This document shows, one piece after another, positions 1-37,445 of a stretch of 37,445 nt of DNA. The position numbers were made by a program, and so were the translations under genes. Under the pieces are notes generated by a model. It saw only the letters and a program-made list of their open reading frames with translations, was not told the DNA's origin and ran no database searches. How positions within the stretch are numbered: the stretch's first letter is position 1; each line of letters begins with the position of its first letter. This DNA is from a virus, in IMG/VR virus record IMGVR_UViG_3300012345_000014, positions 1-37,445 of that record. The stretch is one strand, 5' to 3'.

Positions 1-55
1 CATTATCGTCTTCGACATTAGATTCAGTTTCAGAATCCTCTGATTCAGTCTCATC
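1..55. repeat. Terminal redundancy, copy 1 (identical to 37391-37445)
   Basis: Direct comparison: cattatcgtcttcgacattagattcagtttcagaatcctctgattcagtctcatc occurs at both window ends. Confidence 0.95.
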
Positions 56-247
56 ATCTGCGACTTCCTCGCTAGATTCAGGTTCTTCTTCTTCGGTATC
101 TGTCTCAGTCTCAGCCTGAGTTGGCTGCTCTTCTGGATCAGCGAAGAGTGTCTGTCTAAGCAGGGAAGTCAGACCTTCAGTGTCTAACGAATTGCTTGGC
201 AACGTGGTTTTGGTAGGTTCACTAACCTGATTGGGTGATGTAGGCAT
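1..247 (-). CDS. Scaffolding-like protein, 5' (N-terminal) segment of a gene that wraps the window junction
   Basis: Not in the ORF track. Minus-strand ATG at 245-247, with an in-frame stop upstream at 269-271. Translation MPTSPNQVSEPTKTT...ETESEDSETESNVEDDN is strongly acidic. The 247 nt are 82 codons plus 1 nt, and the frame continues exactly into 37390 downward once the 55-bp end redundancy is collapsed (340 aa in total). Lies between the portal and major capsid genes. Confidence 0.6.
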   Translation of the reverse strand, partial: MPTSPNQVSEPTKTTLPSNSLDTEGLTSLLRQTLFADPEEQPTQAETETDTEEEEPESSEEVADDETESEDSETESNVEDDN

Positions 248-342
248 AAGCAAGAGGTTTAATGACCATCAAGAGGTCGAACTAACGAACAGAGCTTGAG
301 AAACTCAGGAACGTGAAAAACCTAAGCCTACTTTTTTGAGCG

Positions 343-588
343 TCAAGGGTCGGAGAATTCCACCTCAGTCTCAGACCGTGTCGAATAGTCCTCAATGATT
401 GCGCGCAAGTCGATTAGAGCGGCTACTTGTCCGGCGTAGTATGCACGATCCTCGCCCTTGTTGACCACATCTAGCACGCTAGACAGTGCAGAGTTGTGTT
501 CACTCTGGATGACTGCGTAGAGTGCATCCCAGAACGCTTTGGTGCCCATCTTGAGCGTGAAGGCTTCGATAACTTTTATCTCTTCCAT
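343..588 (-). CDS. Hypothetical small protein downstream of portal
   Basis: 81-aa ORF. Its ATG (586-588) overlaps the portal stop (TAATG). No motif recognised. Confidence 0.5.
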   Translation of the reverse strand: MEEIKVIEAFTLKMGTKAFWDALYAVIQSEHNSALSSVLDVVNKGEDRAYYAGQVAALIDLRAIIEDYSTRSETEVEFSDP

Positions 589-2732
589 TACATCTGAGGA
601 GGTTGTTGTTGCATTTGCTGTTGGACCATCTGGTCACCAACTGGCGTTACACCAGTTCGGCCAATCTGAGCGTTCTGTTGCTGCATTACGCTCATTTGCA
701 TGTTCTTAACGTAGTTTTGCATCAAGGTCTGGAACACTGGGTCTTGCTGTGCTGCTGCCTGTGCTTTTGGATTCTTGGACATGATGTCTTGAACATACTG
801 CATACGAGTTTCAGCAGTAGGATCGTTCTCCTTATACATCGGCTCATTGCCTAGCATCATCATTCCAATGTCAGACTGGACCTCTCTGAACATCTGCTCA
901 GATGCGCTTGAGTTGTCCATGATAAGATCACGGGCAGATTCAGGTGCAACGGCTTCGATGATCATCTGGATAAGCTTGTTACGGTTAAGAACTCCACCTG
1001 CATCGAGAGGCACCACAAACGATGAAATAGCCTGTAGTTTCTTCGCAACTAGGTCATTATCAAGCGATTGGATGTTAAACCGCACAATGAAGTCAAAGCC
1101 ACTAGCAATGTCACTCATGTTGCTTGGAAGCTGAACACCTGTGATACGCTGGATCTCTTCCGGTGGCATGTATTGCAGGCATAAGCTGAACATCTGGTTG
1201 TAGATCTTCGACCAAGTGCAGAGCCAACGGTTAACCAACTGTTGCTGCATTAGTTGCGTTTTAATTGGCACCACAGTTGCACGGCTCAAACCAAAGTAAT
1301 TGGCATGGTTGTTCTCGACACGCTCAATGAGGTTGAATGCAGTTGTCGGCGCACGGTTAGGAGACTCTAACCAAGAGTAATCATCTGGACGAGTGACAGG
1401 AAGCTGAACACCTGGGCCAATCTTGTTGATCTGACCAATGCGCTTTACCACTTTCATAGGTGGCAACGTCTCAAATGCTGTCCGGTCACGAATCGAATCG
1501 TGTTGAGCTTTGATTTCGTCCTGATCGGTGATTGTCAGTTCTGGAATGCCTCGACTCTCGGTGATTGGGCGGCGAACAACTTCGCGCCTGAACTCAATGA
1601 ACGGATACTCACCATGAGCATAATCTAGCAACTCATGCTTAGCGTAAAGATCCTGCTCTACGAGAGGAGAGAACACCGTGCAGTAAATTGCAGCGATGCC
1701 GTCCTTGTCGATCTGACGAGTGTAGGCATAGCAGATCTCAATCAGGTTGTCCTGTCGGATGATCGGAGAGGCACCCAGAGCAGTGATCGTGTCTAGCGGG
1801 TTGGTGTACCATGACTGCTTGCCTGCTGTCTCGACTGCTTGATCAATAAACTCTTCATCCCAGTCCTCTTCTTTAACCTTGGATCGTAAATCCACCTCGT
1901 TCATGTAGATACGGCGAAAGATGACTCGCGCAGATTGTAAGTCCATCGTCTCCGGTGGCAGTGCGATCTCTTCAAACGGCTTGAGAGCAGTTACACAAGG
2001 TAAGTTTTTGCTTACATACGTCTCATACATCTCACCTTCTCCAGTCTCACGAAGCTGTCTCACGAACTTCTTGATGTCACCTAACTTAAAGTCTGGCAGA
2101 TTCATGGAAATCAACTGTGCAGCTTGATCGGCTGCCTCTGGATTCATGATTAGGTCAGGAAGCTGGGAGAGTGCAGAGTCTGGACCTGCTTGCTGCGAGA
2201 GTGCAGCAATCTCGTCCATGCTGATCTTCTGAAGTCGTTTGGAGAACTCCTGATCCCATCCTACATGGTAAATCATCCAGCCGTAGTGCAAGCCATACTG
2301 TGAACCTAGCTCAACCTCACGCGATATTTCGGCCCGTAGCTTCTGTTGGGTGACCCAGTTCATGAGCGTAGACGCTGCGCTTGCAGTCGCCATGTCATTG
2401 AACTCGGTAGGCAGAACGCCAAGCTGAGAACGCTCAAAGGAGGTCGTTAGAAGGCAAGAAAGTTCATTGATAGTCGAATCAGCCAGTCTATTCCTAACAT
2501 CACTCGCGCCTTCAAATGGAAACGCCTGTCTATTGTTCGGTAGATTCTCAGAATGCTTCTTCCCATCGTCGGATTGTCCAGCCCATCTACAGAATCGGAT
2601 GTCATCAGCAGCATTTAATCTTTCTACGTTTGCAGTTGTATAGAGTGAGCGGGTAAGCTCCTTAGAGAGTTCAAGAACGTCTGGCGTTTCAGAATAGAAA
2701 GCTAGTTTGTCGCTGCTGTTTGATTTCTTCAT
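588..2732 (-). CDS. Portal protein (positional call)
   Basis: 714-aa ORF starting 1 nt after the large terminase stop and lying upstream of the scaffold and capsid genes. Size and position fit a portal. Gln-rich C-terminal tail (QQQNAQ...QQQMQQQPPQM). No family motif could be verified by eye. Confidence 0.7.
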   Translation of the reverse strand: MKKSNSSDKLAFYSETPDVLELSKELTRSLYTTANVERLNAADDIRFCRWAGQSDDGKKHSENLPNNRQAFPFEGASDVRNRLADSTINELSCLLTTSFERSQLGVLPTEFNDMATASAASTLMNWVTQQKLRAEISREVELGSQYGLHYGWMIYHVGWDQEFSKRLQKISMDEIAALSQQAGPDSALSQLPDLIMNPEAADQAAQLISMNLPDFKLGDIKKFVRQLRETGEGEMYETYVSKNLPCVTALKPFEEIALPPETMDLQSARVIFRRIYMNEVDLRSKVKEEDWDEEFIDQAVETAGKQSWYTNPLDTITALGASPIIRQDNLIEICYAYTRQIDKDGIAAIYCTVFSPLVEQDLYAKHELLDYAHGEYPFIEFRREVVRRPITESRGIPELTITDQDEIKAQHDSIRDRTAFETLPPMKVVKRIGQINKIGPGVQLPVTRPDDYSWLESPNRAPTTAFNLIERVENNHANYFGLSRATVVPIKTQLMQQQLVNRWLCTWSKIYNQMFSLCLQYMPPEEIQRITGVQLPSNMSDIASGFDFIVRFNIQSLDNDLVAKKLQAISSFVVPLDAGGVLNRNKLIQMIIEAVAPESARDLIMDNSSASEQMFREVQSDIGMMMLGNEPMYKENDPTAETRMQYVQDIMSKNPKAQAAAQQDPVFQTLMQNYVKNMQMSVMQQQNAQIGRTGVTPVGDQMVQQQMQQQPPQM

Positions 2733-2733
2733 A

Positions 2734-4383
2734 TTAATAAGAGCCTATTTCGCCTTGAGGTTGGAAGCTTTGACTGTTTTGATGGGTCGGATTCATTACG
2801 GCAAGGTAACGCAGGACATCGACAGGATCTTTAGTTGCTCCCTTGTCTCCGTCTGCACCTGTCCACTCTCGGAGTGAGTAAATGATGTTTTTGCACGTTT
2901 CACTAACATAAAGGTTAGGCTCATTTAAGAGCGCAAGCAAGGGTTCGTCCTTATCCCACGCTAACCAGTTGTTAATGATGCTCACTCCTTCCTCAATTCG
3001 GAGTCCAGCAGCAGGCGTAAACCACATTGGGTCTGGATCTTCGGCTAGGAGGTCAGTCAGACTGGTTCCACCGTTTTTACCAATCGCCTGAGTGCCTCCG
3101 GCTCTAGGGTCAATAAACCTGTCAGCAATCTCTTCCTTGCCTTCTAGCTCTTCGATGAGTGCTTTGTAGTCGTTAATCCCTCGACCAGCACCGTTTCTCT
3201 GTGCTGCCCCTGCTTTTCCGTCTGGCTTATCACTTGGGATCGCCCATTCACCTAAATCAATGCTAGGCCATTCACGATAGATGAACTTTCTACCGTGTTC
3301 GTCCACTCGGAGCCACAACATGAACCAGTTACGAGCACCAGCAGGGTCCATTGCCATGTAATTTGTCCCTTTTTCGGGTATCTGATCGTCTGGAATCACA
3401 TTCCAGTTGCCAAATTTAGGAAACTGGGAGCCAGAGAGACTTTCGGCCCAACCATAAGCACGAATCTTGACCTCGTAGTTTGTCCGGCCATGTAACGCTC
3501 GTTTGATTTCGCTGAATGGAGAGTAAGCATTGAGTTCAGAATGGAACCAAATCGCCCTGTTACTCGGATTATGGCAGGTAGCTTGGAACGGCATGGTGCC
3601 ACGTTCACCACCTGGGACATTAATTGAGTCTTTGAGCAGTGATGCTGGGAGCCATTTCGTGATCATCGCTCCTGCAATGTATTCTTTCACCACCGAAGTA
3701 TAACCAGAGATGGGAGTAAAGGTCAGAATCATCTTCCCTCGCCGTGTTGCAGTTCGGTAGCGTAGCGTTTTGATCCAATCGGCTGTGATCTCTTCGTCAA
3801 TCCAGATAAGATCGACTTCACCACCTTCGATCACCTTGATGTCTTGGGACTGATTCAGGAACCAGCACTGGCTTTTGTTGGGAAGGACAAACGTGTTGTC
3901 ACTAAATCCGTTCTTCTGCGTGAATGCTACGTTGGTGATCTTCGTCTTGCGTGCCGTCTTATACTCGGCTGGAAGGTATTTGTAGACTACAGGTTGCTGC
4001 ATCTGCACGCTGCTCATGTTGGTGGTATGGATGCACCACACTCGCTTGCCTGGGTTCTGTGAGAGGTATTGAGCCACTCGTTTTGCAGCATATTCCGTCT
4101 TAGACGCACGATTCCCACCAAAGATCATGAGTTCTGAGATAGCTGGATCTGACAACAGACTGTCGGCAATCTTCCAGTGATCTGGCTCGTAACCGTGCCT
4201 GTAAGGGTCCATCGTCTCTGCCATGATCTTATCCTCACGCAGTTGGAGAAGCTCACAAGCACGGTCAATGCCCTTGTTCTTAATGATGTTGGCTATCTGC
4301 TCCGCTGTGGGAGCGACCATGATGGGATGAGGCGTAGGCGTATATTTGCCTAGCGTTTCCTTGGATACTTCGTTGATGAACAT
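2734..4383 (-). CDS. terL: Terminase large subunit
   Basis: 549 aa. Walker A-like GGNRASKTE, Walker B-like DLIWIDEE, and a C-terminal nuclease-like half (MAMDPAG, FIDPRAGG). Immediately upstream of the portal. Confidence 0.85.
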   Translation of the reverse strand: MFINEVSKETLGKYTPTPHPIMVAPTAEQIANIIKNKGIDRACELLQLREDKIMAETMDPYRHGYEPDHWKIADSLLSDPAISELMIFGGNRASKTEYAAKRVAQYLSQNPGKRVWCIHTTNMSSVQMQQPVVYKYLPAEYKTARKTKITNVAFTQKNGFSDNTFVLPNKSQCWFLNQSQDIKVIEGGEVDLIWIDEEITADWIKTLRYRTATRRGKMILTFTPISGYTSVVKEYIAGAMITKWLPASLLKDSINVPGGERGTMPFQATCHNPSNRAIWFHSELNAYSPFSEIKRALHGRTNYEVKIRAYGWAESLSGSQFPKFGNWNVIPDDQIPEKGTNYMAMDPAGARNWFMLWLRVDEHGRKFIYREWPSIDLGEWAIPSDKPDGKAGAAQRNGAGRGINDYKALIEELEGKEEIADRFIDPRAGGTQAIGKNGGTSLTDLLAEDPDPMWFTPAAGLRIEEGVSIINNWLAWDKDEPLLALLNEPNLYVSETCKNIIYSLREWTGADGDKGATKDPVDVLRYLAVMNPTHQNSQSFQPQGEIGSY

Positions 4384-17492: not shown

Positions 17493-17753
17493 CTATTTCA
17501 AACGATAATGCTTAACGTGTCGTAAACCGTTGGGAGTCATCACAATAAAAGTTTTACACTCAATGCGTCCGGAGTTGATGGACATGGTAATAACCTCGTT
17601 CATTCGTGATCTTTTGAGGTGAAAGATGCTTTCCAGTTGCAATCTGGTTTTCCAGTCTTCACTAGGAGTTTCGTGACTGCTAACTTGCTCTACTTGTAAA
17701 GCACTAATCCAGTCAGAATTCTTTGAACCCAGTGGGTAGATACCACTTGCCAT
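17493..17753 (-). CDS. Hypothetical protein, start uncertain
   Basis: The track ORF 17493-17813 overlaps the phosphoesterase 3' end by 100 nt. Internal ATGs at 17771, 17753 and 17603 are alternatives. No motif recognised. Confidence 0.25.
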   Translation of the reverse strand: MASGIYPLGSKNSDWISALQVEQVSSHETPSEDWKTRLQLESIFHLKRSRMNEVITMSINSGRIECKTFIVMTPNGLRHVKHYRLK

Positions 17754-18441
17754 TGCTGTCTTTTCGTGCATGCCAAGCTTGCCAGTCCCCTGTCTTGTCG
17801 TTGATGATTCCATAAATCCAGCCGTTTGAGTGTCGTAGTGTAGAGGTGTGGCCTGAGTTGTAACTCATTTCTAGCTCACACAAGGCACCGCTAGACATTG
17901 CGACCCTTTTGTCAAGACCAGCAATCGCAACAGAGTCAGCGGCATGGATATGACCGAAGATGCATGATCCGTAGACTAGAGCGTGTTGCCTGCAAGCGTT
18001 GATTCCATGATGGAAGCCATGGAGGAAACGAACATTGCCAAGCTGGATGATACCTAACCGCTTGTGATAGGGTTTAACCACGCATTTGAGCTTCCCATAA
18101 AGTGCAGCAAGCTCAATGCACCCTTTCATGGCATAGTCGGCTTTAATGCCTGCTGTATGGTTCTCAGCTAGGTCGTAGAGCCGTTTATCATGGTTACCTT
18201 CTAGGACATAGTTAGGCCGCCACTGTCGTAGGAACTCACATCCTGCTGTCCAGTCGTTGAGCATACTCTCAGCCTGTTCCTCTGCTCCTGCTCCACGCCT
18301 CAGCGGTCGAAGGTCAAAGATATCTCCACCGAAGATTCGGTCGTGAGGTCGGAAATCCTTCGTGAACTCATGCAAGGCTTTAATCGTCGCGGAGTCCTGC
18401 TTGTCACCATGCAGGTCTGTGGCGAAGATAAAGCGTCTCAT
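17713..18441 (-). CDS. Calcineurin-like metallophosphoesterase (NinI-type Ser/Thr phosphatase-like)
   Basis: 242 aa. FATDLHGD, FGGDIFD, EGNHD, HGF and GHIH motifs in the canonical order. Confidence 0.8.
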   Translation of the reverse strand: MRRFIFATDLHGDKQDSATIKALHEFTKDFRPHDRIFGGDIFDLRPLRRGAGAEEQAESMLNDWTAGCEFLRQWRPNYVLEGNHDKRLYDLAENHTAGIKADYAMKGCIELAALYGKLKCVVKPYHKRLGIIQLGNVRFLHGFHHGINACRQHALVYGSCIFGHIHAADSVAIAGLDKRVAMSSGALCELEMSYNSGHTSTLRHSNGWIYGIINDKTGDWQAWHARKDSNGKWYLPTGFKEF

Positions 18442-18592: not shown

Positions 18593-21500
18593 TTACTTGG
18601 ATTTAGATTGGACTAGTTTCTGCGCTGATTCAAGCGAATCTTTTACACCTGCTAAGGCTCCAGTGGCTAGATAGACTCGGTATTTGCCAGAGGTTGACTT
18701 GATGATTCGTGATCCGTCTGAGCCGTTGAGGATGTTGGGTGAGGTTGGATCGGGTTGGAATCGGATGTCGTTAGACTTGGGTAATAGAACCGCACGGTTG
18801 TCTTGAATATCCATGCGATAACCTTCTCTAGCTAATTTCTGATAAATAGCAGCGGTTCCCTCTGTGATTTCTTTGTCGCTTTTAATGGACACACCCTTAT
18901 CAAGCCAATAGCGATAGAACTCTGAACCAATGCCTCGTCCACGATAATTCTCATCAATTTGGATCATGTTGATAGAGATTTGCTCTGGGCTTTTGGTAAG
19001 TCGAACAAATCCAATCGGCGCATCGTTGTCATCCACAATAAAGAGTTCATGCGCTCCAAATGGGCTTATGGTATCTTTGCCGCGAACCATTAAATGAGCT
19101 TCGTCGGCAATAGTATCCACCAACTTATCTTTTGCCGCGTTAAACTTGGGCATCACAAATTGATCATCTTCCAAGTCTAGCGTTTGCAGCTCTTCTAATT
19201 TATTATTGAATTGCTCTGGAGTGACTGGCTGGAAGCGGATGTCGGGTGCATCTGTGTTTGAGCGTTTGATTCCAGATTGTTCAATATAAGCATCAAGTCC
19301 AACTAGTCGAGGTTGTGTGCCAAGAGCGATGTGTGAACTAAATTTATTGCCTGGAAATACAACAGACTGATAATCACCAATTAAACCGCTGGCAGATATT
19401 GGATCTTTTAGATAACCAATAGGCTTTCCTTGGATCTCCCAATCATAACTGTAATGGAAACCAGTGCGCTTTGGTTGTGCGTCTAATGGTATCTGCACTA
19501 AAGCAACAATTGTTCCGTTTGGTAGATTAGTGAAGCGAGGATCGTTTGCTTGTTGTGCCAATTGTGTGGCAGCAATTCCAAGTTTTTCTTGTTCTACAAA
19601 TGGGATGATTGAATTAGTCCTCTTCTTTAAAAGAACATCACGCAACACACCACCAGGCTTGATTGCAAACTCAGGTGTTTTAAGCAGTTCATTAAGTGAA
19701 CGAATAGCAGGAGTCTGATTTTCTTTATCTTTTGAGCCTTTTGTTAGATTATGGACTTCACCATAAATCTCTTCAATAAATGCATCCATATCTTTTCTGG
19801 ATACCAATTTTGAATCTACAGCAGCTTCAAGTGCATCTTTATAAGCACGTTGAGTTGTTTTGTTAGAAAGGCTTGCTTCTTGACCTTGTAAAGTAACCGC
19901 TAAAAGGAAATCTTTTTCACCAGGCTTGGCTTGTGCTCTAGCTCTAGCCAATGTCCCATCGGCTTTTGCTTTTGTTGTCCATGCCCATGCTGCGTTTGGG
20001 TGTTCTTCAATAAATGAAGGGCCACCTTGTGCAATCACAGATGCTTCTCTCTCACTACCAATTGGGCCAACATTAAAACGCCCACGTCTCATTCTATCTG
20101 CCGGAATAACCATTGCAAATTTGCCATGAAGTTCATCTAAAGATACATCTCCAACAGGTTGGAATCTCTTCATTGATTCCGGCGTTAGTATAACAACATC
20201 TTTTTCACCCTTAACAGGAATGACCTTGTTGAGGTCAGTGTCGATGATACCTTCGTTGAGTTTCTTTTGCTTAGATGCCTGAGTAGCAAATTCAGACTGA
20301 GCCTTTCTCATCGCCTTCTCTTTAGAATCAGCGATGCCAATCAGCTTGCCAGTGTCATCGTATGTCCTGAAGAGTTTCGACCCTGTTTTGTTGAGGATAC
20401 GGAAGCCGTCTGGATTGGTGAATGACTCACCGTTAGGGAGGGATTCGGGAGTGAAGGCGTCTGGTTGGAAGTTCCTCATTCCACGTTCGTAAGTCGTAGC
20501 CTCTTCGAATGCAAACTTGTTGCCTGAATCGACCAGCTTGGCAAAGCGTTCTGCTCTGTAGCTCTTAATCGTGTTCTGTGACTTATTAACGACACTCTGA
20601 GGAGCATTTAACAGTGTCTCACCGTTCCGAAGTCGGAAGCCTAAAGCATCATAGAACAGATTGCGTCTTGTCGCTCCTTTAACGCCTCCACCCAGCAACG
20701 TAGCTGAGTCCACAGCGTTAATCTGCGTGATATTGTCCATGTATTTCCTGAAGCCTTTGAGAGCTTCAGCAGGACTATCGAAAGCAGCCTTAAACTCTGG
20801 CTTTGTCATAGCCGTAGCTAGACGATCACGAACCTTGGACATATCAACGGCACGAATCAGAACGCCATCCTTGCTGTTAATCTCGACAGAGTAAGGGAGG
20901 ATTTCATTCTGGCTGGCAGACTTAACGCCAGCAACCATCTTGTTGCCTCCTTTGCCTCTTGTGTAGACTCCGTAATAACGAGTGTCGAAGGTAGACTTGT
21001 CGGCGCGTTGCATGGAGTTCAGAACCTCTACAAGCACCGCTTTAGCAGATGGATCTAATGCGCCACTGTCGAGGATAGCAGTGAGGGCAGTTGGGCTTAA
21101 TTGACCCTTAGCTGTCATCACAGTCTTTCCAGCCTTATCTCGGCTAAAGTCGATTCCAATCTTCTCGCTATCTGGTAGAGCAGATAATCGGCTAGTCATG
21201 TCTTGCCAACGTGCAGCAGCTTCAGCGTCAATCTGAGACTGACTCTTTGGCGTTCCATTGTCGTTTAGAACACCTTTAGCACCACCGTATGTCTTAGCCC
21301 ATAACGCTCTATCGGCAGGGTTAACTGGGATTAAATCAGGCTTGGCATTCGTTACATCGACAGTCTTGAGCTTTTGAGCAAATGCCTTCTTAACAATGGC
21401 ATCAAGCTCAGGGATACGAATAGGCTTGCCATTCTTGTCCTTGAAGGTCTTTGCCACATTATCAAAGCCAAGGTCCATGCCTTTCTCAAACATGACCGAC

Positions 21501-23749
21501 CTGAACTTATCAAGAACACCATCTTCAATAGCAGACAGAACCTTTCGATAGACTAACGGTAATCGGTCAGGATTGAATCGACCTGCTCTTGTGCGTTCAA
21601 ATAGTCTGCCAGTGTAAGCAGCAGTCATCTCATCGGCAATACGGCTGCGAGCATTTGCCAGAGAGTCCGCATCTGTGCTGTTCTTGAGTGTATTGGCAAA
21701 GCCTTGGAACTCGTTAGCAGCAATGGTATTCTTACCATAAGCATCACGAATCTGTTCAGCTACTTTACCAAGTGCAACGTCATCGAAGACTCCAGCCTTT
21801 ACAATCTGACCTGTAACAGGATCAGCAACGCCATAAATAGCGGCTTCAATCTCAGGACGGAAAGCACGATTGATAACTGAGTTGAATAGAATGTGAGCAG
21901 ATTCATGAGCAGCAGTGTCTCCACGGATCTTTTCAGGGTTGAGAACGATTTCCATTCCGTCAATATTGACCCAACCAGGAGCTAAACCTTGCTTGATCTC
22001 GTCGGGAGTAGCTACACGAAGTTTACCACCAGAAGCTTCAGCAACTCGCATAGCGTCTAGCTGTGATGCGGCACGTTCTGGGCCTACTTTAGCGACTAGC
22101 TTGGACATTGTGTCAGACCATGCGCCTTGTTCGATCTCTGGACGAGTAGTAATGAAAGTGTTGAGGTCACCAGTCGCTTGTTGCCTTGTGCGTGATGTAG
22201 AACCACCAAGAGCTTCCTTGCCAAGGTCAAAAGCACCACTCAAAGAACCAGTTAGACCACCTAATGCTCCACCAGCTCCAAAGCCAGCAGCTACACCTTC
22301 TAGATTGCGTTCAGCTAATCCACCCAACGCACCACCGACAACAGAACCAGCAGCAGCACCTTTGACAGCACCTTTTGTAACGTCCACGACAGCACGTCCC
22401 AATGGCTGGAACTGTGCTAATCCAGCAGCAAATTTGCGTCCTGCTTGTGATACACTTTCATCAAGTGCGACACGCTCTAGACCACCAAGTCTTGAAGCTT
22501 CTTGTTGTGCAATACGAGCAGCAGCACCAACTACTTCAGCGACCTTTTCTGTGGCTTTAGCACCACCTACAACGCCAGCAGTTAGACCTAGGTCACCCAT
22601 GGCGGAAGCTGTCAATGCCGTAGCTTGTGCACCAACTCCAGAGCCAGGAGCTACTGACTCGGCAATACGACCGACTGCTTGCAGTGCTCTGCTAGGTAGT
22701 GAAGCAACGCCTTGAACAGCTCCAGCAGTGCCTTCGATGGCTCTAAGTCCTGCTTGAGCCATTGGACTTGGTGCAGTTGATGGAAATGCAACAGTTGGAG
22801 CGTTTGGATCTGGAACAAAGTCAGTCATTCCACCGCTTTCAATGGTTTCAGATACCACTGGAGATGGTATGTTGTCCGCACCTTGTGCAGCAGTCCTAGC
22901 AGCAGTTTCAGCAGCCGTTTCCACTCCTTCAGCTCCAGCAGTCCTTGCAGCAGCTTTAGCAGCAGCATTTGCAGCAGCTCTAGTGACTAAAGTCTTGCCT
23001 CCTTTGAGTGCTACCTTGACTAAGGCTCCACCTAAACCAGCAGCTAGGAACGGATCGACAAATTGTCCACCTCTAGCAACTTCTGGAATGGAAGCATTCC
23101 GCATCGTTGACTCCATTGCATAGAGCCTGTTTACAATCTCAGAGTCACGTTGTTTTTCGGATGCAATAAGGTTTTTATAGTCTTCCTCGGTATTGACTCG
23201 ACCTTGACCTACGGCATTTGGACTCATTCCACCCATTCCCATGAATGCATTGGATGCGTAATCAGGCTTTGCCACCTTTCCAACGAAGTCTTCTTTGCGT
23301 GGGATAGGTTGAGCAGGATCAAAGATCTTGTTCAGGATATCATACGTTCCAACCATTCCTGCTGTCATACCTTCACCAAGTGACTTGGCTACTTCTGCGC
23401 CTTCACCTTGATAGGTCTTATAAGCTGCCGTTCCAATGCCAGTAGCTAACTCATCTCGGACTTGGTTGAAAGTATCCTTGGCAATACCAAAGAACTCACC
23501 TGGCGAAGTCTTCTTGTCAGCTTGATACTGTTTAAACAAGACGTAGTTATCATCTGACATCTGCTGGAATGGGTCAACCAAGTCTTGCCCTTCCATGGCA
23601 GCATTCTTCACTCCTTCAACATAATCCGCCATGTCCTTACCAGTAGGCGGAAACATAGCCGTAACAGAATCATTGATTTGTTCCTGAGTCGCTTCATCAG
23701 GAAATACAAGAGTTTGATTGCGAGACTTGATGAAGACTTCTTTGGGCAT
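18593..23749 (-). CDS. Giant multidomain (polyvalent-type) virion/ejection protein: A/G-rich N-terminal part, HExxH zincin-like module, C-terminal GNAT acetyltransferase-like module
   Basis: 1718-aa ORF, the last gene of the structural module. HESAH at 21893-21907. GNAT motif A YRGRGIGSEFY at about 18914-18946, within a GNAT-like span of about 18815-19060. Ala/Gly-rich region at about 22200-23000. Five FQP tripeptides. Confidence 0.8.
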   Translation of the reverse strand: MPKEVFIKSRNQTLVFPDEATQEQINDSVTAMFPPTGKDMADYVEGVKNAAMEGQDLVDPFQQMSDDNYVLFKQYQADKKTSPGEFFGIAKDTFNQVRDELATGIGTAAYKTYQGEGAEVAKSLGEGMTAGMVGTYDILNKIFDPAQPIPRKEDFVGKVAKPDYASNAFMGMGGMSPNAVGQGRVNTEEDYKNLIASEKQRDSEIVNRLYAMESTMRNASIPEVARGGQFVDPFLAAGLGGALVKVALKGGKTLVTRAAANAAAKAAARTAGAEGVETAAETAARTAAQGADNIPSPVVSETIESGGMTDFVPDPNAPTVAFPSTAPSPMAQAGLRAIEGTAGAVQGVASLPSRALQAVGRIAESVAPGSGVGAQATALTASAMGDLGLTAGVVGGAKATEKVAEVVGAAARIAQQEASRLGGLERVALDESVSQAGRKFAAGLAQFQPLGRAVVDVTKGAVKGAAAGSVVGGALGGLAERNLEGVAAGFGAGGALGGLTGSLSGAFDLGKEALGGSTSRTRQQATGDLNTFITTRPEIEQGAWSDTMSKLVAKVGPERAASQLDAMRVAEASGGKLRVATPDEIKQGLAPGWVNIDGMEIVLNPEKIRGDTAAHESAHILFNSVINRAFRPEIEAAIYGVADPVTGQIVKAGVFDDVALGKVAEQIRDAYGKNTIAANEFQGFANTLKNSTDADSLANARSRIADEMTAAYTGRLFERTRAGRFNPDRLPLVYRKVLSAIEDGVLDKFRSVMFEKGMDLGFDNVAKTFKDKNGKPIRIPELDAIVKKAFAQKLKTVDVTNAKPDLIPVNPADRALWAKTYGGAKGVLNDNGTPKSQSQIDAEAAARWQDMTSRLSALPDSEKIGIDFSRDKAGKTVMTAKGQLSPTALTAILDSGALDPSAKAVLVEVLNSMQRADKSTFDTRYYGVYTRGKGGNKMVAGVKSASQNEILPYSVEINSKDGVLIRAVDMSKVRDRLATAMTKPEFKAAFDSPAEALKGFRKYMDNITQINAVDSATLLGGGVKGATRRNLFYDALGFRLRNGETLLNAPQSVVNKSQNTIKSYRAERFAKLVDSGNKFAFEEATTYERGMRNFQPDAFTPESLPNGESFTNPDGFRILNKTGSKLFRTYDDTGKLIGIADSKEKAMRKAQSEFATQASKQKKLNEGIIDTDLNKVIPVKGEKDVVILTPESMKRFQPVGDVSLDELHGKFAMVIPADRMRRGRFNVGPIGSEREASVIAQGGPSFIEEHPNAAWAWTTKAKADGTLARARAQAKPGEKDFLLAVTLQGQEASLSNKTTQRAYKDALEAAVDSKLVSRKDMDAFIEEIYGEVHNLTKGSKDKENQTPAIRSLNELLKTPEFAIKPGGVLRDVLLKKRTNSIIPFVEQEKLGIAATQLAQQANDPRFTNLPNGTIVALVQIPLDAQPKRTGFHYSYDWEIQGKPIGYLKDPISASGLIGDYQSVVFPGNKFSSHIALGTQPRLVGLDAYIEQSGIKRSNTDAPDIRFQPVTPEQFNNKLEELQTLDLEDDQFVMPKFNAAKDKLVDTIADEAHLMVRGKDTISPFGAHELFIVDDNDAPIGFVRLTKSPEQISINMIQIDENYRGRGIGSEFYRYWLDKGVSIKSDKEITEGTAAIYQKLAREGYRMDIQDNRAVLLPKSNDIRFQPDPTSPNILNGSDGSRIIKSTSGKYRVYLATGALAGVKDSLESAQKLVQSKSK

Positions 23750-25510: not shown

Positions 25511-26314
25511 TTAGTCTTTCATGTAGGTTAGTTTTTCCTGTGATGCCCATGGCACTTGTCTCGAAATATTCTCAATTGTCATGTCCAGCTTAGGACAATG
25601 CACGAACTTAGGAGCGTTAACCCTACGATCAACGCAACGAGTGCAAGCGTGGACATAGTCAACGTTATGCGCTTTGTTCACCTTCTCGCTCCACTTGCCA
25701 TTCGATTTCTCGTAGCGGTCAGCATCGTATGGAACGTCATGCTGTTCGATGTATTCCCATACGTCATCATGAGTCCAGTCACGAAGAGGGAACATCATGT
25801 TAGGTTGACCCCATAACACTCTAGACTCAATGCGCGTTCCAGCGTCTCCACCTAGGATTGGATCTGAATCACAACCTTTGTGACCTATCCACAGACAGTC
25901 AAATGCAGGAACTTCCAATAAAGTCTGCTTTGGACGTTTGAGGATGTCTAGAGAGCAAGTAAACGAGCACCCTTGAATTGGCTCAACAATGCCAGTGGGA
26001 CAGGTGAGAATCGTTGAGTTTACTTGATAGAAGTTTTGCACCTCAAACTCGTCACCAGTCTGCTGGAAGGCAGATTCTTGAGGATGCCAAGTGTAGACCA
26101 ACAGGTTCCACCGTTTGATTAGATCATCTGCAAAGATATACTTCCTCGGCTGCCATGGTTCACGAAAGAAGACAATAGGCATTGTTAGACCCATGCTCTT
26201 CATGATGTGAAGAAGCACCATCGAGTCCTTGCCACCAGACCAACAAATCATCCCTTTTGGGAATGCCTTGATGCCGTTGGCAATGATCTTTTTTGTGGTT
26301 TCTAGTTTAGTCAT
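25511..26314 (-). CDS. PAPS-reductase-family PP-loop enzyme
   Basis: 267 aa. PP-loop ICWSGGKDSMVLLHIM near the N-terminus and a C-terminal Cys cluster HACTRCVD...VHC. No CysH-type ECG(L/I)H motif seen. Confidence 0.75.
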   Translation of the reverse strand: MTKLETTKKIIANGIKAFPKGMICWSGGKDSMVLLHIMKSMGLTMPIVFFREPWQPRKYIFADDLIKRWNLLVYTWHPQESAFQQTGDEFEVQNFYQVNSTILTCPTGIVEPIQGCSFTCSLDILKRPKQTLLEVPAFDCLWIGHKGCDSDPILGGDAGTRIESRVLWGQPNMMFPLRDWTHDDVWEYIEQHDVPYDADRYEKSNGKWSEKVNKAHNVDYVHACTRCVDRRVNAPKFVHCPKLDMTIENISRQVPWASQEKLTYMKD

Positions 26315-28757: not shown

Positions 28758-30707
28758 TTATTCAGTTGAGACTAGGTTACGACCAGGAGTAATTGCATCA
28801 ATAGTTAAGCCACGAATGGTTGGGCGTCCTGAATTGATTGTAAACTTGATGTCTAGGGCATAGGCTCTGCGTGAAACCTTAGCCCTAACATTCTTATCTT
28901 CTGCGGTTGTGCTTGTGAAGTTAATCAAGCTGATTGCCGTGTCTGGATTCGTAGCAATAGCAGAGATGTCCATGCTTGTGCTAGCATCCAGAAGCATATC
29001 AGTCTGTAGGCCAGAGAACCTCTTTTGATCAAAGGTCTTGAAGCTGTAACGTCTGCTTGTGAGTATAGCAGGAATCGAAGATTGAATCACTCCAGTAACG
29101 AATACGGCTGAGTCTGCACCTGCTGTATCTCCTAGCAGAGCCAAGCCTAGAACTGGTGTTCCACTCCCATTGTTGAGAATATCGACCTCTCCTTGTTCGC
29201 TTAGATGCAGCTTCCTCAACGAGACTGCAAACATCTGGTTTCTGTTGTTGTAGACTGCCTGTAATAGCACTCTAGGAGCATACGAACCATAAGTTGAGTT
29301 CTGCGGATACTTGTCCACCGATTCCCACGCTTGGTTCAGCAGTGAGTAAACGAGCGTTGCATTGTTAGTCGTTGGAGGAACATCGGAGTCAATCAGAGGG
29401 ATCGAAAGGTAGTAACGGTTGTTGAAGAACAGTCCACAGGCGTTCTGGGCATACTGCGTGTTGATGTCCTCAATGATGTCAGAGATTAGATCAGACAGAG
29501 GCTTTTGATCACCTACTAACTTAAGGTCTAACGTGTTGTTAAGCAAGTAAACACCACGATCTGAGAGGAAGAACACCTGTTGTCCTGCAAACGTAATGCT
29601 ACGCCTTGCAATGCATCCAAACTGGTTGGTGAGAGTCTGAACGAACGACTCATTGTCGATTCCTCGGTCAATCGTTGTGTTCGTGATAGCAGGTGGCGGA
29701 ATGTAACCGTAGTAGATGCTATTCCGCTTAAAGATCAGGAACTTGTCTTCTTGGAATGGAACAAAGCCAACAATATAGTCGTTATCTCCCACGTTGATCT
29801 TGAATTGATCCAACGAGACATCAAACACGTTTGGCTCGTAATAGTTAGACGCTGCAATCTCATCACGGCTAACACAAAGCACAATACGACCTTGGAAATA
29901 CATTCCGAAGTCTGCTGGAGGCATACAAGAACTCGTTGTGTTTGCTAAGAATGGGAATTGCTCTGGAATAGATCCAGCAGCAACAACCGCTTGAGGCATC
30001 ACAGTTACTGTTAATGCTGTTGGGTTTCCATCAAATACCAAAGGAGCTTTAGCCTTAACACAGTCGAATGTGCCGTGGTTTACAGTTCCTGAAGTTGTCG
30101 TTGTGTATGTAATTGATGTTGTGCTAGGAACTGTCTCAACGAAGTAAGTTCCTGAAATATTTGGATGCGTTGGAACATTAACAATGATCTCATCTCCAAT
30201 GGCATAACCATGATTAGAGGGAAAAGAGCTTAGAGTTACAGTTGTTCCAGTGCGACTAGCTGAAGTTCCAGTGAAGACAGTGTTTCGGCTGTAACCTCGC
30301 AAGATATAAATCTTGTCCTCAGCTTGGAAAGCATCAACTGGATCTGACTCGGAGATGGAACGAAAGAACGTAGTCGCACCAATCACCCGTGAAGGGTAAG
30401 GTCTAGCTGAAGAAATAGTCTTCGTCGTCGTGTTGTAGGTGTAAAGTGCAGTCTCGGAGACTAGGACGATAGACTGCTCACCTGTGATGCTCGTATAGAG
30501 GCAACTGGTCAGGAACTTCTTGCCACCAGATACAAGGTCGGGAGTTGTTAGGTCTAGACAACCTGCACGAACCTTAGCCTCTCCACGATCCATCCGCATA
30601 TTCTGTGCGTATTGCACATAGCCTGCTGCTACGTTTACAGGATTCTCTCGGCTGGAAATACCAACAAAGCCAAGGTCACCTTCAGTTTGATATGGATTGT
30701 TAGGCAT
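28758..30707 (-). CDS. Large virion structural protein (possible tail tube/nozzle)
   Basis: 649-aa ORF inside the structural module. The call rests on size and position only. Confidence 0.45.
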   Translation of the reverse strand: MPNNPYQTEGDLGFVGISSRENPVNVAAGYVQYAQNMRMDRGEAKVRAGCLDLTTPDLVSGGKKFLTSCLYTSITGEQSIVLVSETALYTYNTTTKTISSARPYPSRVIGATTFFRSISESDPVDAFQAEDKIYILRGYSRNTVFTGTSASRTGTTVTLSSFPSNHGYAIGDEIIVNVPTHPNISGTYFVETVPSTTSITYTTTTSGTVNHGTFDCVKAKAPLVFDGNPTALTVTVMPQAVVAAGSIPEQFPFLANTTSSCMPPADFGMYFQGRIVLCVSRDEIAASNYYEPNVFDVSLDQFKINVGDNDYIVGFVPFQEDKFLIFKRNSIYYGYIPPPAITNTTIDRGIDNESFVQTLTNQFGCIARRSITFAGQQVFFLSDRGVYLLNNTLDLKLVGDQKPLSDLISDIIEDINTQYAQNACGLFFNNRYYLSIPLIDSDVPPTTNNATLVYSLLNQAWESVDKYPQNSTYGSYAPRVLLQAVYNNRNQMFAVSLRKLHLSEQGEVDILNNGSGTPVLGLALLGDTAGADSAVFVTGVIQSSIPAILTSRRYSFKTFDQKRFSGLQTDMLLDASTSMDISAIATNPDTAISLINFTSTTAEDKNVRAKVSRRAYALDIKFTINSGRPTIRGLTIDAITPGRNLVSTE

Positions 30708-30710
30708 AGG

Positions 30711-31187
30711 TTACACGATCTTCTGAATGTCTTTACCGTTAGCTTCCATCCTTTCCCTTGCCTGAGCAAGAGACAGCCCAAAGGTAACTTGAAAGTGTGG
30801 CGTTTCTTGGAATGACTTCCAATGTCCAGCCCACTCAATACCGTTAGCCTCTGCAATCCTTCCAATCTCAGCGTAGAGTTTGTCTGCTTCAGCAGGTTTC
30901 TTTTCGTCGAGGTAAACTCCACCTTTGAACAAGCCAAGGTCTATGGCTAAACCGTAGTTATGCCAACTGGACCCAGGCTTTGCTTTGGTCACAATCTTGC
31001 CAGGCTTAGTCCTACCAGAAGCATAGAGAGCAGCTTGTGAAGCCCAAGAGCGTAAGCCAGAGATAACCTCAACAGTCACACCTTTTGGATTCATGATCGA
31101 CTCCACGATGACAAGGAAGCGATCTAGCTTGGCTAGTGCTTTCTTGTTTAGGCTCCCAAGGTTCTCAATGGTTCTCTTTGTTCTCAT
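30711..31187 (-). CDS. Endolysin, peptidase M15 (VanY/L-Ala-D-Glu peptidase-like)
   Basis: SGLRSWASQAALYASGR, SWHNYGLAIDL and ETPHFQ motifs. I prefer ATG 31185-31187 (MRTKRTIENLG) over the track's TTG at 31229. Confidence 0.85.
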   Translation of the reverse strand: MRTKRTIENLGSLNKKALAKLDRFLVIVESIMNPKGVTVEVISGLRSWASQAALYASGRTKPGKIVTKAKPGSSWHNYGLAIDLGLFKGGVYLDEKKPAEADKLYAEIGRIAEANGIEWAGHWKSFQETPHFQVTFGLSLAQARERMEANGKDIQKIV

Positions 31188-31308
31188 GTCGTTTCTTCTG
31201 CTCGTCAAATGCTGCTTGATCGCAAGCAAAGAACAAGGCTATTAGACCAAGTGCTCCCACTGCTACAAAAGCAAAGATGATGCCGAAGATAGCAGAGAGA
31301 ACAGTCAT
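31165..31308 (-). CDS. Small single-TM protein (holin/spanin candidate)
   Basis: Own translation: MTVLSAIFGIIFAFVAVGALGLIALFFACDQAAFDEQKKRHENKENH*, 47 aa. Overlaps the endolysin start out of frame. Confidence 0.45.
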   Translation of the reverse strand: MTVLSAIFGIIFAFVAVGALGLIALFFACDQAAFDEQKKRHENKENH

Positions 31309-35536: not shown

Positions 35537-36586
35537 CTATGATGTAGCAGCAAATTTCCCAAGACCTAGGGGATTTTTGCATACGAGTCCGGCCACGGCT
35601 TTTATGAGCCGTGCGGGGCCGCCACCAGCATCAGGAAGTTCTGTCACCTGTGGAAGGTTAGTGTAACGCAACTCCAAGAGATCCATGTCGAGGACATAAC
35701 CACGGAAAGCACCATTAGCACCACCAACACCATTGAACAGAGTTGGATGCAAGCGGAGGCTACCGAAGTCACCTTCGAACAGATCAACAGAAGAGCTGAT
35801 CGTGTCGCTAAAGGCATCACGGTTGAGTGTGCGAACACTTGCAAAGGTATTTGCAGTTGGAGTTGCGAGTTGTGTTGCTGTATAAAGCAAGTTGCTGAAA
35901 GCACGTTTCAGAGTTGGACCAACGACAGTGTCGAACACCTTCATCTGACCAGTCTGGTTGTAGATGCTAGTCAGAACACCTTGAGCATCTGTTTCAGCAA
36001 ATGAACCTGTTGGAGTAGTATTGATGCTAGCCGCAGGTGTGCGGTAGTCAGGACCAGATACTTCACCCGATGGAATAGGATCAACTAAACCAGTCTGGGA
36101 TTCATTATTGATCCAGCGACCAAGAGCTTTGGTTTGATAAGGATTTGTGCCGTTATCAATGACAGCTTGGTTGTCAGAACAGATCGCCGCCTCCATATCC
36201 CTTTTTAACAATTTTATCCCCTTGGCGACCATCCCTGAAAGTTCATCGCGCAGACCAGCCACAATGGAAACGTCCACTGCAAGAGGAGAGACGCGGATTG
36301 CACGTTGGAATACCTGAACATGGTTCGTGAGAATTGCACGGCCATCGTTAAGGTTAGCGTATCCAAGACCACCAGAACCACCAACGGTGACATCTGATCC
36401 GTCAAGAGTACCTGTGATAACTGCGGCTGGCATGTTGTCAGCTTGGAACTGAAGCAAGGTATTACCTGGCTTGTTACCTTTTGGAATCATCGACGTTACA
36501 GGAGTGTCCTTAGCGTCAACGAGTGTGATGTAGTCGGCAAGATCTTCGCGTTTACCGACCTGTGAGCGTTCAAATAGAGCAGGCAT
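35537..36586 (-). CDS. Major capsid protein (HK97-fold type)
   Basis: 349 aa. The N-terminal KREDLADYITLVDAKDTPVTSMIPKG pattern is typical of HK97-like capsid proteins. Follows the scaffold gene. Confidence 0.8.
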   Translation of the reverse strand: MPALFERSQVGKREDLADYITLVDAKDTPVTSMIPKGNKPGNTLLQFQADNMPAAVITGTLDGSDVTVGGSGGLGYANLNDGRAILTNHVQVFQRAIRVSPLAVDVSIVAGLRDELSGMVAKGIKLLKRDMEAAICSDNQAVIDNGTNPYQTKALGRWINNESQTGLVDPIPSGEVSGPDYRTPAASINTTPTGSFAETDAQGVLTSIYNQTGQMKVFDTVVGPTLKRAFSNLLYTATQLATPTANTFASVRTLNRDAFSDTISSSVDLFEGDFGSLRLHPTLFNGVGGANGAFRGYVLDMDLLELRYTNLPQVTELPDAGGGPARLIKAVAGLVCKNPLGLGKFAATS

Positions 36587-36614: not shown

Positions 36615-37445
36615 TTAAAGGAATCTCTCAGCAATGAGTGCTTTGAATGAATCCTTATCGTTTGGGTTTTTCCTGAATGCTTCCTCAGTAGAGCGAGCTT
36701 TCATTGACTTTGAAGTTTGAACAGGTGCAGATGCTGTCTGCTTCGGATTTGATGGAGCCTTCTTAATAGCAGATGTAGGCTTGACCTTGGATTCCCGAAT
36801 CCTTTTACCTTCGATCATATCTCCAATGGAGAGTTTGAAATCAGGGAACTTTTGGATCTCTGGGAACTCACGAATCAAAGCGTTAGCATACTGATATTCT
36901 TGGCTTGAGCGTTGTTTCCAGAACGGATAAGTCTTTTCAGCTTCTGCATCAAACTGCTTACGCGTTTGAATATAGTTCATCTGAGAAGGCAAGTGTTCTT
37001 CAAGGGCATCAATAGCGTTAAGCTTGATCTTGCGGATGTCTTCCGCAGAGTATTCAACCTCTTGACCATCTTTGCCAGTAACAACAGCACCATCAGGATT
37101 CTCTTCAGCCCACCGTCTAACCTGTCGAGCGTTTCGGATCTCCGCATGAACATCAGTATCGCTTTGCAGCTTGAAGTATGGGTTTAATCCTTTGTCAGTT
37201 GGTGCAAAGTCCTTTTGGGAATTGGCAGCTTGTGACTCTGTTTCGGCTAGTTTTTCAGCGAGAGCATTTAGCTTTGCCTCGGCTTCCTTCTTCTGAGCGA
37301 CTAATTTGTCGATCCGTTTCTGGACTCCTTTGGAAAGTTGCTTGTCCTGTTTATCTTCATCGTCAGCTTTAGACTCTTCTGCTTCGTCAGCATTATCGTC
37401 TTCGACATTAGATTCAGTTTCAGAATCCTCTGATTCAGTCTCATC
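36615..37445 (-). CDS. Scaffolding-like protein, 3' (C-terminal) segment; open to the window end
   Basis: The track truncates this ORF at a TTG (36992). My own reading shows the frame has no stop from 36992 up to 37445 (...KQLSKGVQKRIDKLVAQKKEAEAKLNALAEKLAETESQ...) and joins 1-247 through the 55-bp redundancy. Acidic, coiled-coil-rich and just upstream of the capsid gene. Confidence 0.6.
   Translation of the reverse strand, partial: DETESEDSETESNVEDDNADEAEESKADDEDKQDKQLSKGVQKRIDKLVAQKKEAEAKLNALAEKLAETESQAANSQKDFAPTDKGLNPYFKLQSDTDVHAEIRNARQVRRWAEENPDGAVVTGKDGQEVEYSAEDIRKIKLNAIDALEEHLPSQMNYIQTRKQFDAEAEKTYPFWKQRSSQEYQYANALIREFPEIQKFPDFKLSIGDMIEGKRIRESKVKPTSAIKKAPSNPKQTASAPVQTSKSMKARSTEEAFRKNPNDKDSFKALIAERFL
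37391..37445. repeat. Terminal redundancy, copy 2 (identical to 1-55)
   Basis: See copy 1. The redundancy lies inside a coding region, which fits an assembly circularisation overlap. Confidence 0.95.

Follow-up and report, generated by a model that had tools for sequence, protein, structure and literature searches.

A giant polyvalent protein of an uncultured freshwater phage combines a predicted metallopeptidase core with exchangeable cassettes that start at a conserved R-F-Q-P motif

Polyvalent proteins are regarded as the weapons with which a phage or plasmid strikes first on entry. A protein of this kind, 1718 amino acids (aa) long, is encoded by the DNA analyzed here (the window, 37,445 nucleotides), which is IMG/VR virus record IMGVR_UViG_3300012345_000014 and represents the small genome of an uncultured freshwater phage. 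In the survey of Iyer et al. (2017, PMC5512222), a zincin-like metallopeptidase (MPTase) is the commonest hub domain of polyvalent proteins. The GNAT family is listed there for phage polyvalent proteins, as one of the protein-modifying domains and usually beside an ADP-ribosyltransferase (ART) domain, and these GNATs are near to RimI-like protein acetyltransferases. The same authors predicted that the MPTase processes the polyvalent protein itself; no cleavage site was named. The combination of a zincin and a GNAT in a phage polyvalent protein is already documented (PMC5512222) and is not new by itself. A search of the literature for recent work on injected polyvalent proteins retrieved nothing specific.

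The window protein is like the described polyvalent proteins in being a giant, multidomain phage protein with a zincin as hub and conflict-type domains that vary (ART-PolyVal, PBECR, GNAT, LPDs). Delivery with the DNA and self-processing by the MPTase are predicted in both cases. At least two conflict-type domains are characteristic of the class; here, a gluzincin-type domain and a GNAT were found next to at least three further conserved units. Assignment to this class had been proposed in the initial annotation and is borne out by the relatives with the same core, which carry LPD23, ART-PolyVal, PBECR5 and LPD37. However, the core zincin matches no Pfam family, and LPD matches occur in the relatives only. 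Moreover, a platform of 1150 aa, an array bracketed by paralogous 55-aa domains and an R-F-Q-P start of each unit are not described in PMC5512222. The RFQP-delimited layout with its two bracketing domains appears to be new; it was absent from the literature searched.

Bacterial toxins offer two further comparisons. MARTX toxins of Vibrio and its relatives contain conserved membrane/translocation regions and a strain-variable, recombining array of effectors, and a protease within the same polypeptide cuts the linkers between these effectors once the toxin has been delivered. They differ from the phage protein in being exported by type I secretion rather than in a virion, and in using a cysteine protease activated by InsP6, with cleavage after Leu, whereas the phage protein has a candidate zinc protease and R-F-Q-P as candidate site. 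There is no sequence relationship between the two, and cleavage of the phage protein is hypothesized. In polymorphic toxins, the short peptides VENN (CdiA) and DPxGL (Rhs) mark the border between the constant and the exchangeable part, and the Rhs peptide is a site of autoproteolysis as well. A short conserved peptide at the border of exchangeable C-terminal modules is also what is found here; however, CdiA and Rhs proteins carry a single terminal toxin accompanied by an immunity gene, while the phage protein has serial cassettes, each with its own junction, and no immunity gene. The last comparison is with internal or ejected proteins of podoviruses (T7 gp14-16, the N4 virion RNA polymerase, AF_016), which share the position at the end of the structural block, the huge size and the hydrophobic or Gly-rich stretches. 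Homology of the window protein to T7 gp16, the N4 virion RNA polymerase or AF_016 was not detectable.

The organizing principle of the protein, which the initial annotation had missed, is a constant core followed by an RFQP-delimited array of cassettes and a conserved terminal domain. We consider that it probably represents a constant delivery and processing platform with an exchangeable, MARTX-like array of effectors, which would be delivered by the virion and possibly self-processed at RFQP. The platform comprises aa 1-1150, with an N-terminal domain, a glycine-zipper region, a predicted gluzincin, a large conserved domain and a first copy of a domain called C0 (C0a). The array extends from aa 1151 to 1662 and holds cassette C5 and the GNAT cassette, and a second C0 copy (C0b) closes the protein. 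Coordinates are listed in Table 1.

This division emerged from comparison with 40 relatives, all metagenomic, which are 56-90% identical to the window protein over its first ~67% (~1150 aa) and differ in their C-terminal thirds. Modules were defined by cutting at the junction motif and clustering the pieces. The order of core, C0, variable cassettes and C0 is found in nearly all relatives, and nearly all full-length members end in the conserved C0b. C0a and C0b are paralogous domains of ~55 aa that flank the array on both sides (43% identity, pairwise E 1e-11). They match no known family: a sequence search of the PDB gave nothing significant and Pfam only a weak match to DUF7336. More than 15 unrelated cassette types lie between them. 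Pfam recognizes LPD23, ART-PolyVal, PBECR5, LPD37 and DUF7178 in the tails of the relatives, the first four above the cut-offs; in the window protein, no family defined on polyvalent proteins (LPDs, ART-PolyVal, PBECR, MPTase-PolyVal) was matched at E <= 1. The commonest type, C2 (18 units), contains ART-PolyVal in the relative that was checked (P0003), and precomputed annotation gives the same domain for several more. Cassette C5 of the window protein is shared with two relatives (P0002 and P0006) and resembles the start of a cassette of P0004; it has no match in PDB, Pfam, PHROG or NCBIfam.

The number of cassettes varies in nature from none to four. The giant open reading frame (ORF) of locus L012 (IMGVR_UViG_3300033571_011180) encodes 1103 aa, with zero cassettes and a single C0 copy: at residue ~1051, the NFQP of the core is fused straight to the terminal C0 ('RAMRNFQPDPAS...'). 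Collapsed cassettes are seen in P0041 (aa 1359-1388) and P0038 (aa 1394-1403), where tandem RFQP motifs are only 5-13 residues apart. The residues between them correspond to the two ends of known cassettes, as in 'RFQP VTPESPDI RFQP', and these tandem motifs look like scars of cassette deletion.

Each unit after the core starts with [R/K/N]-F-Q-P, situated within a linker rich in Pro, Ser, Asp and Glu. All of the tabulated junctions (118 of 118) read [RKN]F[QS]P, whatever flanks them. The tails, with 22,348 residues in total, contain the motif 121 times, where shuffled sequences predict about 1 occurrence, and the 42,577 core residues contain it 0 times; for the relaxed form [RKNM]FQ[PSA], the counts are 135 in tails and 0 in cores. 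The 7-10 residues on either side are enriched in disorder-promoting residues. A variant is present in P0003 at aa ~1160 (module 1089-1451) and in other modules of type C3, where the junction before LPD23 is 'ANIRFQFAGE', thus RFQF instead of RFQP. The cassette that follows this RFQF carries a second zincin, HE[VI]QH, hence many relatives have two metallopeptidase domains.

The motif is conserved as a peptide. Its codons vary synonymously (CGC, CGA, AGA, CGT, AGG or CGG for Arg; TTC or TTT for Phe; CAA or CAG for Gln; CCT, CCC or CCA for Pro), and selection therefore acts at the amino-acid level. The borders of DNA homology coincide with the junctions: the homology of the window to five related loci breaks in the array and resumes at aa 1505.0 (the P0005 locus) and at aa 1664, 1661, 1661.7 and 1658 (the four other relatives). 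On the left-hand side, it breaks at aa ~1150 in three loci, just past C0a. As DNA homology continues up to this point, the NFQP at aa 1093 lies inside the constant region, and the motif is not merely a recombination scar. Together with the synonymous codons, this first copy led us to reject a DNA-level recombination signal as the sole explanation of RFQP. In a noisy test, 18% of the starts of BLAST high-scoring segment pairs fell within 4 residues of the motif, compared to 3% at random.

The distribution of the motif follows that of the core. Distant relatives (22-32% identity) repeat a broader R-[FY]-x-P, in the forms RFQP, RFSP, RYSP, RYQP, RFMP, RYMP and RFLP. It was not found in unrelated giant phage proteins (two of phage C75C1, AF_016 and 8P_023). 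AF_016 and 8P_023 share a cassette of the relatives but not the core of the giant protein. No mention of the motif was encountered in the literature searched, PMC5512222 included. The FQP tripeptide is also present inside the Gly/Ala-rich region, as 'AQFQP' at aa 445-449 (~22403-22417, within 'GLAQFQPLGR'). At least six of the 12 relatives listed have this copy, and its Phe is below 50% in a consensus of 36 sequences.

The last cassette of the window protein is a GNAT. Over aa 1565-1639 (~18833-19057), two Pfam families exceed their gathering cut-offs, Acetyltransf_7 with 28.5 bits (cut-off 27) and Acetyltransf_1 with 27.0 (20.7), and the giant protein has a weak match to PHROG acetyltransferase families (E 9e-5). 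The pyrophosphate-binding motif for acetyl-CoA, Q/R-x-x-G-x-G/A, is present as R1603-G-R-G1606-I-G1608. A search with aa 1505-1662 retrieved eleven stand-alone GNATs of 170-172 aa (P0094-P0104). They align with 94-96% of the query at 52-58% identity (E 1e-45 to 1e-52), and precomputed annotation gives every one of them GNAT domains of Pfam, from three GNAT families in total. Y-R-G-x-G-I and about 50 other positions are invariant in an alignment of 14 sequences. The GNAT that had been predicted from the sequence is thus supported by profile comparison and by strong homology. Its limits had to be redrawn: motif A does start at 18914 but ends at 18958, not 18946, and the unit consists of 158 aa rather than about the last 300. 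Likewise, the GNAT is near the C-terminus, as had been claimed, but the very end is formed by a conserved 56-aa domain (aa 1663-1718).

The cassette corresponds to a whole stand-alone protein minus the first ~20 residues, and its homology ends four residues before the next RFQP. Compared to the stand-alone 170-aa GNATs, these first ~20 residues are swapped for RFQPVTP, and the stop codon for ...SNDI-RFQP. From this alignment, the cassette appears to have been captured almost whole from a family of stand-alone phage GNATs. The neighbors of the stand-alone genes (L006, L022 and L023) are small unannotated ORFs, a gp44-like clamp loader ATPase, a 5'-3' exonuclease and an N6/N4 DNA methyltransferase, and the stand-alone GNATs probably belong to large uncultured phages. 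One of them (L006, 6001-6513) is located on a 213.5-kb contig of the Joint Genome Institute (JGI) that also has DUF1501 and PSCyt2/PSD1 genes. Such genes are typical of Planctomycetes and Verrucomicrobia, and the contig could represent either a jumbo phage or an island in a bacterial genome. In the giant proteins, the GNAT cassette is rare: it was seen in two of 41 full-length relatives (P0001 and P0005) and in the fragment P0042. It is an exchangeable cassette and not a fixed feature of the giant protein.

The only other enzymatic signature that the initial annotation had pointed out, HESAH at 21893-21907, is found exactly there (aa 615-619). Each of the 41 close family members has HE[ST][AS]H, at a constant ~478 residues upstream of the core's end. 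A phmmer search with aa 520-1092 against 1.84 billion representative proteins gave only 50 representatives at E <= 0.001. Every distant match (22-32% identity) is to a giant protein, 1200-2700 aa long, and lies at about residues 500-1000; HExxH is kept in nearly all full-length proteins among them. In an alignment of 23 zincin regions, with identities down to 14-21%, the only invariant residues are N604, H615, E616, H619 and E707, and Y712 is nearly invariant. This is, by sequence, the pattern of a gluzincin: HExxH and a distal Glu, here about 87 residues downstream.

A model of the domain was built with AF2 from a 226-aa region, using a more diverse alignment than in the attempt on the whole core. 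It reached a predicted local distance difference test (pLDDT) of 88.7 and a predicted template modeling score (pTM) of 0.84. Three helices and then three strands precede the HExxH helix, after which comes a long helix (model residues 180-205) that bears E707. Of the top 37 PDB matches in Foldseek, none of them significant, about 20 are zincins: anthrax LF, MATCAP, PprI/IrrE, M1, selecase/jannalysin, PPEP-1 and deuterolysin. A profile search of PDB sequences with the zincin region gave aureolysin at E 0.03. Within BFVD, the model matches phage proteins named large-polyvalent-protein-associated or ART-PolyVal-like (E 4e-24 to 8e-6) and, weakly, an N4-like virion RNA polymerase, a MuF protein and a metalloprotease. 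The zincin-like site that had been suggested from HESAH alone is therefore upheld as to its conserved HExxH/distal Glu pattern and the confident model, but not by a Pfam zincin family or a significant PDB match in Foldseek. Conservation and model topology make the identification as a zinc metallopeptidase well supported, with no significant match to a known family. The core zincin is probably active and stands for a clade absent from Pfam, one that is either divergent or not yet modelled there.

The rest of the constant core (aa 741-1092) is highly conserved. An AF2 model of aa 520-1092 was poor (pLDDT 58), and a Foldseek search with it was uninformative. The Ala/Gly-rich region noted previously is real: alanine and glycine make up 39.5% of aa 230-520, versus 21.7% overall. 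Three moderately hydrophobic 19-mers (aa 229-249, 376-394 and 461-479) and several zipper runs of the small-xxx-small type lie within it; aa 270-330 form a variable insert. In relative P0039, Pfam gives a match to Gly-zipper_YMGG in this region, below the cut-off. This conserved glycine-zipper-like region resembles the membrane-active segments of ejection proteins, and it probably engages a membrane.

If the protein is a virion-delivered array of effectors, it would be synthesized late, be built into the particle as an internal or ejected virion protein and reach the cell with the DNA, aided by the glycine-zipper region. Such packaging seems probable because of the gene position, the membership of the polyvalent class, the glycine-zipper region and the homology of cassettes to proteins of phages AF and 8P. 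In the relatives, the cassette with LPD23 and the second zincin shows homology to a section of the 2213-aa ORF AF_016 of Pseudomonas podophage AF, which directly follows the genes for 'internal virion protein A/B' and 'structural lysozyme'. The same cassette is homologous to part of a protein of phage 8P annotated as 'structural protein'. In the cell, the zincin would cut the RFQP linkers in cis, freeing the cassettes as separate early effectors, and the released GNAT would acetylate a host target, a protein or a small molecule, using host acetyl-CoA. Cleavage at RFQP by the zincin, in the way that the cysteine protease domain of MARTX frees its effectors, is put forward tentatively, because motif and core are distributed together, the motif lies in linkers, no other protease is recognizable and self-processing was predicted by Iyer et al. 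It is with similar reserve that R-F-Q-P, or more broadly R-[F/Y]-x-P, may be regarded as both recognition and cleavage site, and the family as a plug-and-play, self-processing array that would be the phage counterpart of MARTX. Any enzyme bearing the tetrapeptide, be it an ADP-ribosyltransferase, an RNase, an acetyltransferase or another, would on this view travel in with the DNA and be set free in the host. As a speculation, a cut before Phe would expose an N-degron residue and shorten the life of the effector.

Several observations weigh against a delivered, self-processing array. Two scans of 185,579 GTDB species genomes revealed no prophage copy. The PDB sequence matches of the GNAT cassette and its stand-alone homologue are all GNATs, yet weak (E 0.07-0.46), and no close solved structure was found by this search. 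Pfam zincin families were matched neither by any of the 23 zincin regions nor by the whole protein, and the Foldseek comparison of the zincin model with the PDB gave a best E of 0.18 and TM-scores <= 0.39. Cutting at every RFQP would set both C0 domains free as 6-11 kDa peptides, for which no role is obvious. Others of these observations are also what would be expected if the architecture were the same but RFQP stayed uncut, as a linker or docking element (a first strand, a cap or a contact with the core) that aids in-frame recombination. The polypeptide would then remain intact and act whole, like the N4 virion RNA polymerase, and the zincin would attack host proteins or have a role in packaging. 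The N4 virion RNA polymerase, ArdC and TraC1, all bearing an MPTase, are indeed transferred unprocessed (PMC5512222). FQP is invariant within the alignment of the C0 domain, as part of that domain. In P0075, the first His of HExxH is missing: the sequence at aa ~560-566 is 'PEEVFH', in which Glu replaces the first zinc ligand (EExxH), and three FQP/FSP motifs are nevertheless retained. The homology breakpoints that fall on the motif, the collapsed cassettes and the cassette-less variant fit this explanation too. On the other hand, a tetrapeptide that is retained where the cores share 22-30% identity, and that stands ahead of over 15 unrelated types of cassette, is not easily explained as part of each fold; the synonymous codons show that what is conserved is not a DNA-level recombination signal; and the motif stands in linker-like sequence and is restricted to proteins with this zincin core. 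We regard an uncut RFQP as the less likely reading, though as a serious alternative.

That the protein is not packaged at all, being a multi-enzyme protein made inside the cell during infection and close to structural genes by coincidence, is improbable. All genes lie on one strand, the phosphoesterase gene and genes for recombination and replication come directly after, and no terminator- or promoter-like signal separates the giant gene from these followers; furthermore, the GenBank phage records searched gave no homology to a virion protein verified by proteomics. However, the gene follows the portal/capsid/tail block with the same neighbors in every relative examined, and the polyvalent-specific Pfam domains are typical of proteins delivered together with DNA. 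The conserved glycine-zipper region, which recalls the membrane segments of ejection proteins, and the occurrence of the relatives' cassettes in the internal-virion-protein cluster of podophage AF and in the 'structural' protein of 8P speak for packaging as well. A tape-measure or tail-fiber protein, whose variable C-terminus would serve host-range switching, has very little probability. Such a protein would be long, with Gly-rich hydrophobic segments, a conserved N-terminus and a mosaic C-terminus, as this one is, and one cassette has a weak, non-significant phmmer match to a tape-measure chain (E 0.25). But the cassettes are enzymes of intracellular type (ADP-ribosyltransferase, BECR RNase, GNAT, zincin) and not receptor-binding folds, no tail tube, sheath or tape-measure family was detected, and the gene is the last of its block, with no distal-tail genes after it. 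Both structural readings were rejected on the cassette content and the gene position.

Table 1. Position of the giant gene, its parts and selected other genes in the window
Feature	Protein position (aa)	Window position	Strand	Remarks
Polyvalent protein ORF		18593..23749	-	1718 aa plus stop, ATG start; identical to P0001
Core	1-1092			
N-terminal region	1-229	23063..23749	-	conserved in the family; no family match
Ala/Gly-rich region	230-520	22190..23062	-	composition, hydrophobic 19-mers, conservation
Predicted gluzincin-type metallopeptidase	521-740	21530..22189	-	AF2 model and invariant residues
HESAH	615-619	21893..21907	-	predicted zinc ligands H615 and H619; predicted catalytic base E616
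E707 codon	707	21629..21631	-	invariant distal Glu in I-A-D-E-x-x-A-x-Y; predicted third zinc ligand
Rest of the constant core	741-1092	20474..21529	-	68-87% column identity to the query; also in distant relatives
C0a (first C0)	1093-1150	20300..20473	-	NFQP start; end of the constant region
Connecting segment	1151-1194	20168..20299	-	only in relatives with a C5 or C12 cassette
Cassette C5	1195-1504	19238..20167	-	RFQP start (20156-20167)
GNAT cassette (158 aa)	1505-1662	18764..19237	-	RFQP start (19226-19237); Pfam, homologues
GNAT motif A, IDENYRGRGIGSEFY	1598-1612	18914-18958	-	R1603-x-x-G1606-x-G1608 inside
C0b (terminal C0)	1663-1718	18596..18763	-	RFQP start (18752-18763)
Portal (714 aa)		588..2732		tblastn matches to annotated portal proteins
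Large terminase		2734..4383		weak match
Calcineurin-like metallophosphoesterase (242 aa)		17713-18441	-	
Virion structural protein (649 aa)		28758..30707		'virion structural protein' PHROG match
M15/VanY-type cell-wall peptidase (172 aa)		30711..31229	-	
Major head protein		35537..36586		

The window is a complete circular assembly of ~37.39 kb, with an exact 55-bp direct repeat at both ends (1-55 and 37391-37445), and its long ORFs are all on the minus strand. The terminase, portal, major head protein and replication genes identify the genome as that of a phage. The closest cultured relative by portal protein is phage C75C1 (27% identity). An acidic, coiled-coil-like ORF, a candidate scaffold, bridges the joined genome ends; it is flanked by the portal gene and the major head gene. 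Among the window genes, no tape-measure, sheath, tail tube or prohead-protease family was recognized, hence a podovirus-like particle is likely.

The giant gene is the longest ORF (5157 of 37,445 bases, 13.8%); it had been described as the largest gene, with about 14% of the genome, and as the last of the structural module, and both statements agree with our results. It closes the head/tail block and is followed by the phosphoesterase gene and then by recombination and replication genes. This gene order is common to five related metagenomic loci: M15 peptidase, proteins of ~650, ~445, ~111 and ~262 aa, a PAPS-reductase-like protein of 267 aa, proteins of ~200 and ~330 aa, the giant gene and the 242-aa phosphoesterase. 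Related phages with this order have other cassettes in the array of the giant gene, namely ART-PolyVal, a PBECR5 RNase, LPD23 with a second zincin, LPD37 and DUF7178. A scan for promoters and terminators around the 3' end of the giant gene gave no signal. Megablast and tblastn searches with the whole giant protein against 50,697 GenBank phage records, as well as an NCBIfam search, gave no match.

Three of the neighboring genes deserve mention. The 242-aa phosphoesterase comes directly after the giant gene in every related locus examined, with constant length, and may be functionally linked to the effector protein. The M15/VanY peptidase gene sits in the structural block, just upstream of the gene for the 649-aa virion structural protein and not in a lysis cassette; its product may be virion-associated. 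Finally, the 267-aa PAPS-reductase/PP-loop protein (Pfam PAPS_reduct, E 4e-12) is encoded in the middle of the structural block (25511-26314, minus strand). Its position is kept in all related loci that cover it (L002 7633-8436, L004 5095-5898 and L008 309-1112), and this odd location might reflect a function in DNA modification or in the virion.

With one protease domain, four invariant residues predicted to be catalytic and a four-residue junction found ~120-135 times across 41 relatives, the family is a small, testable case. If the motif is left uncut, the protein adds to a known class a new, clearly delimited example that carries a GNAT. If the motif is the cleavage site, this would explain how unrelated enzymes are swapped without breaking delivery, and in RFQP the MPTase domains of polyvalent proteins would have their first defined processing site. 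It would also provide a rule for recognizing cassette borders, and thereby new anti-defense or takeover effectors in metagenomes, such as C5, and would suggest a tag for loading cargo into phage particles.

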